Positions 2,868 to 11,634 of a stretch of 64,000 bases of DNA are shown in pieces (the stretch's first letter is position 1; every line of letters starts with the position of its first letter). The position numbers and the translations under genes are program-made. Under the pieces are notes generated by a model. That model was not told the DNA's origin, did no database searches, and saw nothing but the letters and a program-made list of their open reading frames with translations. The stretch covers positions 1 to 64,000 of IMG/VR virus record IMGVR_UViG_2706795344_000001; one strand, written 5' to 3'. This DNA comes from a virus. Taxonomy: Duplodnaviria > Caudoviricetes.

Positions 2868-3219
2868 AAATTTTATCTATCTTATGCACACTCAAACCAT
2901 AAATCTCAATATACTCGAATATTGGATACTTTTCAACAATTTCTTTAAATTTATCTGTTATAATCTGTTCATCTGTATCAAGGTCATATTTCTCCATATG
3001 TATCCACACTTCTGGAGCTACATTTTCCAATTCCCACCCTAACTCAAGCATGGCTTTTCTAAATACAGCAATGCCAGTAGGTCCTGAGCTATCTTTCAGT
3101 TTATACCTGATATTACAGTGACATTTCCTGTATTGGTGATGCTCAGTGCCAGTTATTTTGTTTTTACTAATCCAAAAACCACCAACATAGGGTTTTCCTT
3201 CCAAATCTTCTAAACTCAT
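2857..3219 (-). CDS. Hypothetical protein
   Basis: 120-aa ORF in the operon. Confidence 0.6.
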   Translation of the reverse strand: MSLEDLEGKPYVGGFWISKNKITGTEHHQYRKCHCNIRYKLKDSSGPTGIAVFRKAMLELGWELENVAPEVWIHMEKYDLDTDEQIITDKFKEIVEKYPIFEYIEIYGLSVHKIDKIFGG

Positions 3220-7087: not shown

Positions 7088-7132
7088 ACTTTACAATAAA
7101 GTTGTTGACAAATCTGGATTTTGTGATATACT
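7088..7132 (+). promoter_or_regulatory. Promoter of the tRNA/ncRNA cluster
   Basis: ACTTTACAATAAA, then TTGACA-16 nt-TATACT with TG extension. Confidence 0.7.
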
Positions 7133-7198: not shown

Positions 7199-7287
7199 GG
7201 ATTGTAGCGTCAAGGTGACAAAGCGGACTTGAAATCCGTGCCATTGGTTAGTAGCCGATGGGGGTTCGATTCCTCTACTCTCCTCCA
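7199..7287 (+). tRNA. tRNA-Ser(TGA); two acceptor-stem mismatches
   Basis: Anticodon loop CTTGAAA, long variable arm, TTCGATT T-loop, CCA end. Confidence 0.8.
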
Positions 7288-7345
7288 GATTTTAAATCGA
7301 TTTAATTAAATATTTTAATTAATTAAATCCATTTAGGATTTCAAC

Positions 7346-7433
7346 GGTAGAAGAAATTCATAGGTTGTTTCGCTCCCTGCTAAGGAGATGGACTGCTAAC
7401 GCGGTTGTGTTTCGATTACACCTTCTATCGCCA
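7346..7433 (+). tRNA. tRNA-Ser(GCT)
   Basis: GGTAGAA/TTCTATC acceptor, CTGCTAA loop, long variable arm, GCCA end. Confidence 0.8.
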
Positions 7434-7539
7434 AACATACTTCGGCAATTTCGCTACCGAAGGAGTTGGGATTTGCTGGTATAGACTCTTAGGCAAACCA
7501 GTATTTATTTAAATTTTTAATTTAATTATTTGTGAGGTA

Positions 7540-7779
7540 TTGATGTTTACGAATGTTTGTTCAGACAAAATTGCTGAAAAGGTCGGAAGCGTATTCGACA
7601 AGCAATGTAAAACAATTGAGAAAGGTATTGAAGATATCAAAGCCAATCGAGAAAAACGCCAGATTTTGATTGCTGAGCATAAAGCTGGTTTAGCTAAGCT
7701 CGAAGCTGAAGTGGATAAAGATAATAAAAATATCGATATCCTAAATACAAAATTAAGTACACTTCGAACTTTGGTTTAA
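7540..7779 (+). CDS. Small coiled-coil protein within the tRNA cluster
   Basis: GAGGT RBS; heptad pattern. Confidence 0.7.
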   Translation: MMFTNVCSDKIAEKVGSVFDKQCKTIEKGIEDIKANREKRQILIAEHKAGLAKLEAEVDKDNKNIDILNTKLSTLRTLV

Positions 7780-7850
7780 GTGGTTAATTGGTGACGTGTT
7801 GGATGTTTAAAATAATGGAAGTTATTAGAAGTATTTAACGTCACCTTGTT

Positions 7851-7927
7851 ACGCCATTAGCTCAGATGGATAGAGCATCTGCCTTCTAAGTAGATGGTCA
7901 CGGGTTCGAATCCTGTATGGCGTACCA
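7851..7927 (+). tRNA. tRNA-Arg(TCT)
   Basis: Canonical cloverleaf, CTTCTAA loop, CCA. Confidence 0.95.
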
Positions 7928-7931
7928 ATTT

Positions 7932-8059
7932 TAAATCTATTTTAAATTTGATTCGTGTTGTGTCCCACGTTTGCTGGTACATTGAGACTCCTAAATCACT
8001 ATAAGGGACTCTCGGAAGATTAGTGACTTCTAACAGGGATTAAATTTAAAATAGATTTA
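7932..8059 (+). ncRNA. Putative structured RNA: 23-bp closing stem, three inner hairpins
   Basis: 7932-7954 pairs with 8037-8059; loop TCACTA is complementary to loop TAGTGA. Confidence 0.55.
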
Positions 8060-8060
8060 C

Positions 8061-8135
8061 GGGTTGTTAGCTGAGATGAATTAGCGCTAGCTTGAAAAGC
8101 TTGAGAGGTTGGATTGTTACCAACACTTCCCACCA
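8061..8135 (+). tRNA. tRNA-Phe(GAA), atypical
   Basis: TTGAAAA loop; T-loop ATTGTTA; two T-T mismatches in the acceptor; ACCA end. Confidence 0.7.
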
Positions 8136-8143
8136 AATATTAT

Positions 8144-8220
8144 AGCGAGTCGTGATGCTGGTTTCACAGTAGGTCTCATAAGCCTATGTACAAGAGTTCG
8201 ATTCTCTTACTTCGCTACCA
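8144..8220 (+). tRNA. tRNA-Met/Ile2(CAT); bulged acceptor
   Basis: CTCATAA loop, TTCGATT T-loop, ACCA. Confidence 0.8.
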
Positions 8221-8225
8221 AATAT

Positions 8226-8311
8226 GTATGTGTGACCCGAATTGGTAAGGGAGCGGACTGTAACTCCGTTGTCAAAAGCAATTGTAGGTTCAAGTCCTAC
8301 CACATACACCA
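8226..8311 (+). tRNA. tRNA-Tyr(GTA)
   Basis: Perfect acceptor GTATGTG/CACATAC, CTGTAAC loop, long variable arm. Confidence 0.93.
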
Positions 8312-8317
8312 AACAAT

Positions 8318-8392
8318 GGTCGATTAGCTCAGCGGTAGAGCAGTAGCCCGATAAGCTATTGGTCGCTGGTTCAAATCCAGCATCGACTACCA
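8318..8392 (+). tRNA. tRNA-Ile(GAT)
   Basis: Cloverleaf; loop CCGATAA (C33). Confidence 0.9.
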
Positions 8393-8397
8393 AATAA

Positions 8398-8549
8398 TCT
8401 CCCGATTGGGTTCGATTCCCGATCGTAACACGCTTTGAAAGTTTGAATATTCATGATAAGTTCAAATGAGTAGATGGGTTGTGTAAGTTGAAGTTAAGAG
8501 CGAGGTGGCTTGTTTCTTCAATGAGAAGGTTCGAATCCTTTGGAGACCA
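8398..8549 (+). ncRNA. tRNA-like RNA A (~152 nt, two T-loop hairpins, CCA end)
   Basis: TCTCC/GGAGA terminal stem plus CCA; T-arm GAAGG-TTCGAAT-CCTTT; second T-loop hairpin at 8403-8425. Confidence 0.6.
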
Positions 8550-8556
8550 ATTTTAT

Positions 8557-8635
8557 TGCCACGAATCCGAGCAAGGTGCATGGACCAGACTGTTAATCTG
8601 AGGTTAGATGGGTTCGATTCCCATAGTGGTAGCCA
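8557..8635 (+). tRNA. tRNA-Asn(GTT)
   Basis: CTGTTAA loop, T-arm, GCCA. Confidence 0.88.
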
Positions 8636-8689
8636 AACAAGTAGTGTGTACTTCTTCCCTCCATTTATGGAGTTCTAGTCGGCACACAG

Positions 8690-8960
8690 GCAGTGAGTAT
8701 AGATATTTGAGATAAACATTGGTTCTCTCATTTCATCGTTTCGAAAGATTCTTACTGTAACAGTTTTGATGCAAAGTGGTTTTCTTTAAAACAGGCTTAG
8801 AAAGATACATTGGTAGCAGAAACAGAGATTAAATTCTCAGGACTTTCAGCCATGTGCCTTGTTAGTTGTTGTCTGTTGGTTGATGTCAGGTATACGTGAT
8901 AGCTGAGGCTTGATAGTATCATCAACGGCTTTGAGGGATAGTGATCATAATACTCATTGC
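8690..8960 (+). ncRNA. Putative ~270-nt structured RNA
   Basis: 11-bp closing stem GCAGTGAGTAT/ATACTCATTGC with several inner hairpins; no ORF of 60 aa or more. Confidence 0.45.
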
Positions 8961-8979
8961 TTACAAAAACCTGAGATTA

Positions 8980-9056
8980 CGGTGTGTTTCGAGAAAGGGT
9001 AATCGACTGCCTTTGGAGCGCAGAATATGTAGGTTCGAGTCCTACCGCACCGACCA
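8980..9056 (+). tRNA. tRNA-Pro(TGG)
   Basis: CGGTGTG/CGCACCG acceptor, TTTGGAG loop. Confidence 0.9.
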
Positions 9057-9062
9057 AATTTA

Positions 9063-9224
9063 GAGACGTGGGCTGTGAACTCAAGAGAGATGAAAGCAAA
9101 AGTAGTCTTGCGAGTAGAGTAGCAGTGCAGTGGAAAGGTAATCGCCATGAAGGATTAACTACTCTGGTGAAAATACATGTTAAGTAGCCAGCAAGATTTG
9201 TGTTGTACAGGCGATAAGCGTCTC
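9063..9224 (+). ncRNA. Putative ~160-nt nested-stem RNA
   Basis: Nested stems GAGACGT/GCGTCTC, AGTCTTGC/GCAAGATT, TAGAGTAG/CTACTCTG. Confidence 0.5.
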
Positions 9225-9261
9225 AATGAGAGTGTAAGTTTTGATACAACACACCTAATAT

Positions 9262-9337
9262 GACTCATTAGCTCAATCGGGAGAGCGCCACACTGTCACT
9301 GTGGAGGTAAGGAGATCGAAACTCCTATGGGTCGCCA
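9262..9337 (+). tRNA. tRNA-Asp(GTC)
   Basis: CTGTCAC loop; T-loop ATCGAAA; GCCA. Confidence 0.9.
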
Positions 9338-9341
9338 AACG

Positions 9342-9602
9342 TTCGAAGCGGATTGACGTAAATGAACAGGTAGCTCCTGTGACTGAGAAGTCTATGATAT
9401 GGTAAGCAAGGCGCTTCCCTTCGAAAATAGTGAGTGGTGTACAACACGAGCGAACTGGTGTAAGGACTACCCAGACATTGCATAGAATTTGTGATGTGAA
9501 AGTCCTGACAGAATTTTAAGAATAGGTTAAAGACTTCCAAACACTCTGTTGAGATGTTAGAGAAGCAAACGGAGCTGAGTACCTATCTCACATAATAGCT
9601 CC
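9342..9602 (+). ncRNA. Putative multi-hairpin RNA
   Basis: Stems TTCGAAG/CTTCGAA, AGGACT/AGTCCT, ACATTGCA/TGTGATGT, GGAGCT/AGCTCC. Confidence 0.35.
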
Positions 9603-9607
9603 CTTTT

Positions 9608-9681
9608 GCTGGTATCGTATAGTGGTATTATGCTGGTCTTGTAATCCAGTCACGGTGGTTCGATTCCTCCTACCAGCACCA
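9608..9681 (+). tRNA. tRNA-Thr(TGT)
   Basis: GCTGGTA/TACCAGC acceptor, CTTGTAA loop. Confidence 0.9.
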
Positions 9682-9709
9682 AGATTTGTGGTAACTTTAG
9701 AGGTTTGTA

Positions 9710-10009
9710 ATGCAACATTTAGCACATGGTAATTTTATTTTAGTTGAGGATACAGAAAATGAATCTGTGACTGATGGTGGTATTGTCTTAGCCAAAGGAG
9801 CTAAAGAGCAAGAGTCCACGAAACGTTCAAAGATTATCTCTATCTCTGAGCAACTATTGCAACGATTTGAAAGTATGAATCATAAGTTTCCATTGAAAGA
9901 AGGTGATTTTATTTATCGTCGTTATTTCTCTGGAACTATGGTTATGACAAAAGACGATAAAACGTATTACGCATTACATGTTGATGATGTATTGTCTAAA
10001 GAGATTTAG
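9710..10009 (+). CDS. groES: Co-chaperonin, GroES/Cpn10-like
   Basis: ILVE...TDGGIVL mobile loop, LKEGD, YYALHVDDVL; 99 aa; GAGGT RBS. Confidence 0.85.
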   Translation: MQHLAHGNFILVEDTENESVTDGGIVLAKGAKEQESTKRSKIISISEQLLQRFESMNHKFPLKEGDFIYRRYFSGTMVMTKDDKTYYALHVDDVLSKEI

Positions 10010-10079
10010 GGTTGACCGCTGGGCGGTGACGAGGCTCCAAACCTTGTCTTGCTACGTTCGATTCGTAGTCGATCTGCCA
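10009..10079 (+). tRNA. tRNA-Trp(CCA), reduced D-arm
   Basis: GGGTTGA/TCGATCT acceptor, CTCCAAA loop, T-arm, GCCA; 71 nt. Confidence 0.75.
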
Positions 10080-10200
10080 TTTAAGCGTTGCATCGTTTAA
10101 AAGGTTTTCATAAGTTTTGACCTCAATAAAGCTTAGTGATTACGCCACATTGGGCTGGTTAGATTGAAATCTAATAAATCCATGTCATGTTGGCTGTAAT

Positions 10201-10276
10201 TGGGACGTAGTGTAGTTGGTTAGCACATGAGACTTTGACTCTCATAGATTCAGTTCGAACCTGAACGTCCCTTCCA
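10201..10276 (+). tRNA. tRNA-Gln(TTG)
   Basis: CTTTGAC loop, cloverleaf, CCA. Confidence 0.9.
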
Positions 10277-10280
10277 TTTT

Positions 10281-10366
10281 AAAGATATGTAATCTTGCTT
10301 CCGTAGAAGGTACTGACAATCTCACCTGATGTGTGCCGAGGTAAGTGGTGAGGATTACATATCTTT
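10281..10366 (+). ncRNA. Putative 86-nt structured RNA
   Basis: 15-bp closing stem AAAGATATGTAATCT/GGATTACATATCTTT; inner CTCACC/GGTGAG. Confidence 0.45.
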
Positions 10367-10371
10367 GTGAT

Positions 10372-10448
10372 GGTGATCATGGTGTAATTGGCTAGCACCG
10401 CGATTTGTGATGTCGTTAGTCTGAGTTCGAGCCTCAGTGATCACACCA
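10372..10448 (+). tRNA. tRNA-His(GTG)
   Basis: Encoded G-1, TTGTGAT loop, A73. Confidence 0.9.
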
Positions 10449-10450
10449 AT

Positions 10451-10524
10451 GCGTGATTGGTATAATGGTATTATGTCTGGCTTCCACCCAGAAGACGAGA
10501 GTTCGATTCTCTCATCCAGCGCCA
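10451..10524 (+). tRNA. tRNA-Gly(TCC); two acceptor mismatches
   Basis: CTTCCAC loop; GCGTGAT/ATCCAGC acceptor. Confidence 0.82.
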
Positions 10525-10530
10525 AATTCT

Positions 10531-10605
10531 GTTCCATTCGACTAGCGGTTAGGTCGCTTCCCTTTCAAGGAAGTAGCACGAGTTCAAATCTCGTATGGAA
10601 TACCA
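10531..10605 (+). tRNA. tRNA-Glu(TTC)
   Basis: CTTTCAA loop, cloverleaf, ACCA. Confidence 0.93.
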
Positions 10606-10613
10606 AATTCTAC

Positions 10614-10762
10614 GGTTCATCCTCCGACAATTCTTTTAAGTTGTGCATGACTTACCTGAGTTGGCTGGTGCTGAGAGGATAAATAGGAATGCTGCTTTAA
10701 GTAAAATGCAAATAGCTTAAAGTAAGGTCTTAGTTGGGTTCGATTCCCAAGTGAACTCCCCA
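10614..10762 (+). ncRNA. tRNA-like RNA B (149 nt; acceptor, T-arm and CCA with an expanded interior)
   Basis: GGTTCAT/GTGAACT 7-bp stem, TTGGG-TTCGATT-CCCAA T-arm, CCCCA tail. Confidence 0.65.
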
Positions 10763-10922
10763 AATTATTAAGAGAAGGTAATTCGCTAATATCGACGGGT
10801 ATTTGATGCTGTATTGATAGGCGCGTTATGAGTTCGACCCTCACAGGCAGGTTGGTTGCTATGCTGAAATTCTAGATTTCTCTACAGTGGCATTAATAGT
10901 GAGTTACCCTCTCTTAATAATT
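10763..10922 (+). ncRNA. Putative structured RNA: ~26-bp closing stem with an internal T-loop hairpin
   Basis: AATTATTAAGAGAAGGTAATTCGCTA pairs with TAGTGAGTTACCCTCTCTTAATAATT; TGAG-TTCGACC-CTCA inside. Confidence 0.55.
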
Positions 10923-10932
10923 TGTTTTAGGA

Positions 10933-11007
10933 ATACCATAATCTAAAGGGACGAAGTGCTGGCTTGCAAACCCAGAATAGTGAGTTCGAGTCTCACATGG
11001 TATTCCA
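10933..11007 (+). tRNA. tRNA-Cys(GCA)
   Basis: TTGCAAA loop, U73, CCA. Confidence 0.85.
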
Positions 11008-11021
11008 AAGCAAATAATAAT

Positions 11022-11099
11022 GTACAGGTGACGGGAACTGGCATACCTATCACGCTTAGAACGTGGTGCTTGTGGGTTCGAAGCCCACCCTGTATACCA
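11022..11099 (+). tRNA. tRNA-Leu(TAG), short variable loop
   Basis: CTTAGAA loop, A73, CCA. Confidence 0.88.
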
Positions 11100-11113
11100 A
11101 TTTAGAGGTTCCT

Positions 11114-11344
11114 ATGTTAGAAGATATCTTAGCTGAAGGTGTTGTTAGTGTTGATTTCTTTAGCCTTGGCAACTTGATGTTAAAGACATCTGAGCGTAGC
11201 TACTGCCTCAATCTTCATAAAAAATTCTTAATGCGTTTTGTTTTAAATGACTCACTTGCCTTAACAGATGAGTGGTTTGATAAAACAGAGGTATTAAGTA
11301 AATCAGATTTTGACAAGTTAATTGAGGTTATCGAGTGTATATAA
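11114..11344 (+). CDS. Hypothetical protein (start revised to MLEDIL)
   Basis: GAGGT RBS just after tRNA-Leu. Confidence 0.65.
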   Translation: MLEDILAEGVVSVDFFSLGNLMLKTSERSYCLNLHKKFLMRFVLNDSLALTDEWFDKTEVLSKSDFDKLIEVIECI

Positions 11345-11634
11345 TTCATTTCGCCCATCAAGTAGATGGGCACAAACGGTTTATCGACCCTATCTTTATG
11401 GAAGCATTAGAACCTAATGATTTCTACGAGATGAGAGATTGGTTTACACGTATCACAAATTCACTCTTTGGATATAGTGAAGAGAAGGCTTCTAAAACAC
11501 TTCTTGACATGATGGCCCAAGAGAACATTCAAATTGGCAAATGGATTAGTATTACATCACCAGATGATGTATCGACATTAGTCTACTGTATTCGCCATGT
11601 CCCAGAAAAAGCTTCATTCCCTAGAGGTGCATAA
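11335..11634 (+). CDS. Hypothetical protein
   Basis: GAGGT RBS, GTG start. Confidence 0.65.
   Translation: MYIIHFAHQVDGHKRFIDPIFMEALEPNDFYEMRDWFTRITNSLFGYSEEKASKTLLDMMAQENIQIGKWISITSPDDVSTLVYCIRHVPEKASFPRGA

Follow-up and report, generated by a model that had tools for sequence, protein, structure and literature searches.

A tRNA-like RNA element with two T-loop hairpins in the tRNA array of a phage related to the Acinetobacter baumannii saclayviruses

The tRNA operon of bacteriophage T4 specifies small RNAs that are not themselves tRNAs, and the one that served as the reference for the present analysis is RNA C (species 1 RNA, rnaC; NC_000866 70908-71046, 139 nt), which has RNA D alongside it. 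RNA C folds with a closing stem at its termini and two long arms, and its one T-arm, a canonical GGUUCGAAUCC hairpin, directly precedes the 3′ strand; no CCA is encoded in the record. Expression has been demonstrated for RNA C as well as RNA D, neither of which has a known function (PMC9697503, PMC3014915). Features of tRNAs are also found in other non-coding RNAs, such as the tRNA-like domain of tmRNA, in which the 5′ and 3′ ends pair as an acceptor stem beside a T-arm and terminate in a CCA end. In T-box and RNase P RNAs paired T-loops recognize the tRNA elbow, and the motifs of such a pair interdigitate, their loops being neighbours within a single helical stack. YrlA and other Y RNAs represent a further type of tRNA mimic, being partners of Ro60 that carry a tRNA-like T-arm recognized by tRNA enzymes (PMC4201824).

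The window analysed here, i.e. the whole stretch of 64,000 nucleotides that makes up positions 1 to 64,000 of IMG/VR record IMGVR_UViG_2706795344_000001, is part of a 104.9-kb virus record whose nearest relatives are members of the genus Saclayvirus, myoviruses of Acinetobacter baumannii. TAC1, Liucustia and the B09_Aci phages are examples of these, and as the structural genes (24 kb) are at most ~77-79% identical to those of any relative, this phage represents a distinct species-level lineage. An RNA ligase gene (PF09414, E 3.7e-15) is located at 84014-84379 of the phage record, outside the window and far from the locus described below; RNA ligases of this type often participate in the repair of tRNAs cut by host nucleases. 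Genes for a CCA-adding enzyme, RtcB or TROVE/Ro60 (PF05731) were absent from the 104.9-kb record, the TROVE/Ro60 search having given matches in control genomes. The window contains a + strand tRNA array at ~7200-11100, which comprises ~18 tRNAs over 3.7 kb; ARAGORN called 13 tRNAs and Rfam adds further ones. Strong promoter-like sites are predicted upstream of the array, and the best of these (Table 1) may mark the start of a polycistronic transcript. Between this putative promoter and the element no + strand terminator-like site was found except one located inside tRNA-Glu, and none of the candidate internal terminators appears convincing.

The element that is the subject of this study (8398-8549, 152 nt, + strand) sits in this array between tRNA-Ile and an atypical tRNA-Asn. 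It starts 5 nt past the CCA of tRNA-Ile and ends 7 nt ahead of tRNA-Asn, and its 3′ end carries the signature of NCCA followed by A that is present in all other units of the array. The closing stem consists of 5 bp, or of 4 bp from C8399 if A8546 is taken as the discriminator, in which case U8398 would occupy position -1, in agreement with the U found at -1 in most array units. The element is a discrete module that is phased like the surrounding tRNAs. The neighbouring tRNA-Asn has an enlarged D region and is missed by ARAGORN at its default setting, is 100% identical across saclayviruses and, together with its 5′ leader, exhibits 76-83% identity to loci of T4-like Acinetobacter phages (Lazarusvirus, Zedzedvirus), including loci in KARL-1 (2531-2616) and Henu6 (2519-2612) and a further locus at 3009-3088 of its sequence, a likeness which suggests that tRNA modules may move between unrelated phage families. 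Elsewhere in the array, the 133-nt spacer between tRNA-Arg and tRNA-Phe (7928-8060) is predicted to form a terminal stem of ~23 bp around smaller hairpins (-43.6 kcal/mol, z -6.4), and a BLAST match to it was obtained in none of eight compared Saclayvirus relatives.

Table 1. Coordinates of the element, its parts and its surroundings in the window
Feature	Position	Strand	Basis or remark
Putative promoter	7105..7132	+	Best sigma-70-like match upstream of array: TTGACA, 16 nt, TATACT, with TG; consensus match only
tRNA-Ile(GAU), upstream neighbour, CCA encoded	8318..8392	+	tRNA scan
ACCAA direct repeat, left copy	8389..8393	+	Bounds 157-nt polymorphism
AAUAA spacer (AACAA in some phages), 5 nt, A/U-rich	8393..8397	+	Between tRNA-Ile CCA and element
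Closing (acceptor-like) stem, 5′ strand UCUCC	8398..8402	+	Minimum-energy and consensus fold
Hairpin 1, 8-bp stem, canonical T-loop UUCGAUU, in D-arm place	8403..8425	+	Both folds, motif count
Arm 2, long bulged hairpin	8428..8484	+	Basal helix 8428-8435/8476-8484; distal helix 8441-8448/8460-8467
Arm 3	8487..8522	+	7-bp helix, internal loop, 4-bp GAGC/GCUU helix closing hexaloop GAGGUG
T-arm proper, 5-bp stem GAAGG/CCUUU, loop UUCGAAU, abuts 3′ closing strand	8525..8541	+	Both folds
3′ closing strand GGAGA and encoded CCA	8542..8549	+	GGAGA 8542-8546, CCA 8547-8549
ACCAA direct repeat, right copy	8546..8550	+	Bounds 157-nt polymorphism
tRNA-Asn(GUU), atypical, downstream neighbour	8557..8635	+	Rfam 24.9 bits, below gathering score; ARAGORN at relaxed threshold; relatives' annotations

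The minimum-energy fold of the element and the consensus of the alignment both give a five-way junction in which the closing stem surrounds hairpin 1, arm 2, arm 3 and the T-arm (Table 1). A first-pass annotation, made by a model from the letters alone, had proposed that the 5′ end pairs with the strand ahead of CCA, that a T-arm precedes this 3′ strand and that a second T-loop hairpin occupies the place of a D-arm, and all three features were recovered in our analysis. As regards the two interior stems that it had named, TTTGAA/TTCAAA was found to be the distal helix of arm 2, whereas CGCTTT/AGAGCG is not part of the consensus, in which GAGC (8498-8501) pairs with GCUU (8508-8511), a competing helix that is backed by covariation. 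No anticodon arm is present in tRNA geometry, in agreement with the same annotation, and the element therefore cannot decode. The two T-loop hairpins possess ordinary 7-nt tRNA-type loops with G53:C61-type closing pairs and are separate hairpins located 108 nt apart. The 11-mer GGTTCGAWTCC occurs seven times in the 64 kb as compared to 0.03 expected occurrences, all seven being on the + strand and inside the tRNA cluster, and two of these are in the element. Folding of the + strand yielded -42.6 kcal/mol (z -2.0) as compared to -25.3 kcal/mol (z -0.6) for the - strand, and the fold is specific to the + strand; 9 of 200 shuffled sequences fold as well as the element, so that the thermodynamic support is by itself modest, and 9 of the 45 pairs in the consensus fold are G-U. 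The apical loop of arm 2 (11 nt) includes UUCAUGA (8449-8455), which resembles a CAU anticodon loop and in which the palindromic UCAUGA could allow a kissing dimer, and the hexaloop of arm 3 (GAGGUG, 8502-8507) is complementary to CACCUC at the 3′ end of 16S rRNA; these anticodon-like and Shine-Dalgarno-like resemblances comprise just 6-7 nt each, and each of the two loops varies in one phage (at 8450 and 8507, respectively).

It had been anticipated at first pass that tRNA scanners would miss such a tRNA-like unit, and this was indeed the case. ARAGORN, whether used with default settings, in intron mode, at 70-80% thresholds or in tmRNA mode, made no genuine call over the element, its sole overlapping call being a spurious chimera of part of tRNA-Ile and hairpin 1, and Rfam at E<=10 (7700-11300) gave no family match over it. 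With respect to the tRNA family itself (RF00005; gathering score 29 bits), no overlapping match was obtained at E<=10 and no cloverleaf is formed; the element does contain a canonical T-arm (GGTTCGAATCC at 8528-8538) and an encoded CCA, but these are set apart by a gap of 5 nt between T-stem and CCA rather than the 8 nt of a tRNA. An intron-containing or degenerate tRNA was ruled out by the intron and relaxed ARAGORN runs. The tRNA-like domain of tmRNA has in common with the element the pairing of its ends beside a T-arm and the CCA end; however, the element is too short for a tmRNA, as the earlier annotation had stated, its UCUCC/GGAGA pairing has no G:U at position 3 (the G3:U70 of tmRNA), and a tag reading frame and pseudoknots are missing, in line with zero genes in the relaxed ARAGORN -m run and no Rfam tmRNA match. 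YrlA and Y RNAs resemble the element in being non-coding RNAs with a tRNA-like T-arm, but YrlA possesses a D-arm mimic where the element has a second T-arm, the element is without the long Ro-binding terminal stem, and the Y-RNA models of Rfam gave no match in 7700-11300 at E<=10.

The closest described counterpart is RNA C of T4, as the element likewise represents a small non-tRNA RNA that is encoded in a phage tRNA cluster and on the same strand as the tRNAs, with a terminal stem that closes long arms and with a T-arm adjoining the 3′ strand. It differs from RNA C in its encoded CCA and in two traits that are specific to the element, namely a closing stem shortened to 4-5 bp and an additional T-loop hairpin where a D-arm would be. 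No homology between the two was detected: the covariance model of the element did not match T4 rnaC, and a local alignment with the T-loops masked gave p = 0.81. The resemblance is thus one of kind and not of family. A second unit of the same operon, tRNA-like RNA B (~10614-10762), is similar to the element in length (~150 nt), T-arm and CCA-type end but its acceptor stem comprises 7 bp and its T-arm is the only one, and no similarity was found between RNA B and the element when the T-loops were masked (p = 0.68). RNA B is 99-100% conserved in four of the five compared phages that also carry the element and whose analysed locus extends over this region; the fifth, D22, retains the element but matches just 15% of RNA B, from which it follows that the two units were gained or lost independently.

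Comparison of the element with rnaD, with the other spacers and with the odd units of Acibel004 and KARL-1 revealed no likeness beyond the T-loops. In Acibel004 (2813-2929) tRNA-Phe and tRNA-Met are separated by a unit of 117 nt that is not a tRNA but contains a T-arm (GGUGG/UUCGACU/CCACC), indicating that odd T-arm units recur in Saclayvirus arrays, with unrelated sequences. KARL-1 (2445-2530) harbours an unannotated 85-nt tRNA-Arg(UCU)-like unit that has an acceptor stem, an anticodon arm, a T-arm and CCA but no D-arm, in place of which CCCAC pairs with GUGGG in the variable region.

The element is not present in all relatives. Exactly 157 nt, bounded by ACCAA repeats (Table 1), are missing in P1, HB01 and one wastewater contig: in P1 the CCA of tRNA-Ile is joined straight to the trailer that elsewhere follows the CCA of the element, HB01 gives a two-piece match without the element stretch, and in the wastewater contig the joint from 8388 to 8546 skips the 157 nt with the five letters ACCAA common to both sides. 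The covariance model of the element found no match in the whole P1 genome, and in Acibel004, where the element is absent, tRNA-Ile is joined to tRNA-Asn directly. These absences indicate that the unit is dispensable and is gained or lost as a whole at the microhomology between CCA and trailer. The array itself is a mosaic, since comparison of 7300-11350 with eight relatives showed single tRNAs to be 86-88% or 100% identical depending on the partner and whole units to be missing; for the GroES gene located within it the identity is 67-72%, with 82% along a short stretch in the case of Acibel004. Owing to this strong mosaicism the near-identity of the element among phages is likely due in part to recent exchange of array segments. 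In Aci05 (locus 1019-1507), and likewise in Aci02-2, a 357-nt HNH endonuclease gene follows a variant but complete tRNA-Ile and is itself followed, directly upstream of the element, by an orphan 3′ half, from the anticodon loop to CCA, that remains of the resident tRNA-Ile, a layout that looks like a homing cassette bringing its own replacement tRNA part. Recombination in tRNA arrays is known to be driven in T4 by SegB, which cuts them at a T-loop DNA motif (PMC2330249, PMC13096335), and cutting of this type is a plausible engine of the mosaicism, by analogy with T4.

Such observations lend themselves to an explanation in which the element is recombination debris, i.e. a fused remnant of tRNA genes, consisting of orphan T-arms and filler, that was left by homing-endonuclease gene conversion, is perhaps transcribed yet functionless, and is conserved through recent exchange. 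The HNH gene with its orphan tRNA half just upstream, the mosaic cluster, the T-loop specificity of SegB and the microhomology at the junction of the element-free phages are all in keeping with this explanation, as is the narrow distribution of the element. The only true copy beyond 14 phage records was the IMG/VR copy of Aci02-2, which is itself among the 14. Pattern scans of IMG/VR, JGI metagenomes and GTDB genomes, and the search of a phage collection, returned no homologue of more than 3% divergence, and the covariance model, applied to eight sources and five whole records, together with a search by neighbouring proteins, revealed no more distant homologue. Two candidates from the pattern scans proved to be ordinary adjacent tRNAs, and a Microcoleus MAG candidate had just the hairpin 1 string in common. 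A 71.7-kb provirus-class contig of IMG/VR, preselected by the pattern and not counted as a homologue, has a similar long T-loop hairpin, but outside a separate degenerate tRNA-like unit; on its - strand (2072-2330) this contig displays several T-loop hairpins and the degenerate unit (GGAGUGU...ACACUCC-A), and neither ARAGORN nor Rfam detected a tRNA in the 5.7-kb locus.

What speaks against debris, and leaves it in our view an unlikely origin with some residual weight, is the manner in which the element has changed. It is 96.9-100% identical in the 14 phage records, as compared to ~77% for the core genes (structural-gene module) of these phages, and the alignment comprises seven distinct element sequences; as all homologues are at least 97% identical, covariation amounts to few events. 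Ten columns vary, seven of which are paired, and 100% of the cells still pair, so that covariation among homologues, which had been put forward as a check by the first-pass annotation, yielded no broken pair and two compensatory ones. Pair 8408/8420 changes from G-C to A-U in UOL-KIMZ-24, and at pair 8499/8510 two sequences have A-U, four have G-C and one has the intermediate G-U; sequencing run X12 has G-C at this pair too, as in the four aligned phages, and hence does not add a separate event. A further three changes are one-sided and keep standard pairs, two leading to G-U (U8398-A8546 to U-G in D22; C to U at 8424 in Aci01-1 and sequencing run X12) and one from G-U to G-C (G8441-U8467 in TAC1). 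When the partners were slid by 1-3 columns just 36-59% remained paired, and when the ten substitution patterns were placed at random (100,000 trials) no broken pair was obtained in 6%, at least two compensatory pairs in 0.024%, and both in 0.006% (6 trials). The fold of the element is maintained by selection. Three helices never vary, namely the basal helix of arm 2, the 7-bp helix of arm 3 (8487-8493/8516-8522) and the stem of the T-arm, an arm that is invariant in all sequences. Direct support for selection is therefore confined to the inner arm 3 helix and hairpin 1; the distal arm 2 helix and the closing stem are supported by their compatibility with the observed changes.

The interior of the element, moreover, is as conserved as its ends, including the T-arms, and holds one of the two compensatory pairs, and the outcome that the first-pass annotation had set against its own proposal, two decayed tRNA halves around an unconserved interior, was thus not what the homologues revealed. 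In one and the same block, the divergence amounts to 0.7-2.6% for the element, ~4-10% for the adjacent 344-nt spacer and 0% for tRNA-Asn, indicating that the element evolves about as slowly as the tRNAs and ~3 times more slowly than neighbouring non-tRNA sequence in the same genomes; in sequencing run X8 there are about a dozen differences in the tRNA-Ile immediately upstream and none in the element. Also at variance with debris, the 5′ strand is positioned precisely on the boundary of the unit and has the strand beside the T-arm as its pairing partner, and an orphan 3′ half of a tRNA would have 8 nt, not the observed 5, from T-stem to CCA.

We consider it probable that the element is a tRNA-derived, non-decoding RNA gene of the phage tRNA operon, released together with the tRNAs and analogous to T4 RNA C. 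The weak points of this reading are the closing stem of 4-5 bp, the modest z-score and the dispensability of the unit. Moreover, a search of sequencing runs returned no RNA run containing the stretch, and the runs that were compared with it, including X15, which is labelled RNA-Seq, consist of contigs and are probably DNA. The element would be co-transcribed with the array and released by the same nucleases that free the tRNAs: RNase P would cut at the 5′ end of tRNA-Asn and thereby set the 3′ trailer of the element, and might make a further cut at 8398/8399 or directly beside it, the AAUAA spacer would be cut by an RNase E-type enzyme, and 3′ exonucleases would trim to the encoded CCA. With a CCA-ended minihelix and two T-arms, which could be substrates of TrmA/TruB-type enzymes, the product would be a stable RNA of ~150 nt. 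Such an RNA would most likely serve as a tRNA-end mimic or scaffold that offers its CCA end, its two T-arms and its two exposed arms to tRNA-binding proteins, and we infer that it may be the functional counterpart of RNA C (species 1).

A more specific role may be envisaged. The element could be a counter-defence decoy, in which a stable, uncharged, CCA-ended mimic with two T-arms would soak up host factors that bind the tRNA end or elbow, or enzymes that process or modify tRNAs, thereby protecting the phage tRNA pool, and which would be moved as an accessory module by homing exchange. We hold this to be a speculative idea with a rather slim chance of being correct; tRNA-directed defence nucleases and CCA-modifying toxins would be the candidate targets, and if the element indeed acts against host tRNA factors its interest would rise sharply.

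Improbable, in our judgement, is a purely cis-acting role, whereby the fold would do nothing but keep the flanking tRNA-Ile and tRNA-Asn precursors folding and maturing independently, with the released RNA as a by-product. A processing or insulator module of this kind would be in keeping with the strong hairpins formed by other array spacers, such as the one between tRNA-Arg and tRNA-Phe described above, with the phasing of the unit with the tRNAs, and with selection on structure in the absence of selection on loop sequence, as seen from the variation at loop sites 8450 and 8507. However, P1, HB01 and Acibel004 join tRNA-Ile to tRNA-Asn by a spacer of 6-7 nt and keep both tRNAs, and a simple insulator would have no need of a CCA end or of a pair of canonical T-loops.

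It is highly improbable that the element is a tRNA-binding RNA of the type proposed at first pass, in which the two T-loops would form a platform for the tRNA elbow similar to T-box stem I or the specificity domain of RNase P. In favour of this proposal, recognition of the elbow by paired T-loops in those RNAs is established, and the element, like the double T-loop modules of the T-box stem I distal region and of RNase P J11/12-J12/13, has two T-loop motifs in one RNA. The motifs differ in their context, spacing and surroundings, as the secondary structure places the T-loops of the element on separate arms of a five-way junction rather than interdigitated in one stack; furthermore, no T-box or RNase P model matched at E<=10, neither a terminator nor a regulated gene is found downstream, the next unit being a tRNA, and T-box regulation is to our knowledge not a feature of Acinetobacter. 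The double T-loops are explained more simply by descent from tRNA genes, which leaves the platform proposal without support beyond their co-occurrence. Finally, the element is almost certainly not a small protein gene. Two ORFs do exist, 8479-8601, a frame of 40 aa for which phi1_092033 lists a hypothetical protein, and 8505-8678, and GAGGUG is found 13 nt upstream of an in-frame ATG at 8521. However, both frames extend across T-arm, CCA and tRNA-Asn gene and are unannotated in most records, and the substitutions follow the RNA pairing.

A literature search found no paper on such RNAs in Saclayvirus, and genome annotations leave the element blank or overlay it with a spurious ORF. Phage tRNA arrays are now known to act in conflicts with tRNA-targeting host immune systems, yet we know of no function that has been found in some fifty years for T4 RNA C and RNA D, the non-tRNA RNAs embedded in such arrays. 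The element broadens this class of RNAs by a second, unrelated example, and the combination of an unusual design with two T-arms and of naturally occurring present and absent forms, in TAC1-type and P1-type phages, respectively, makes the element a tractable system in which the function of non-tRNA RNAs in phage tRNA arrays may be approached.
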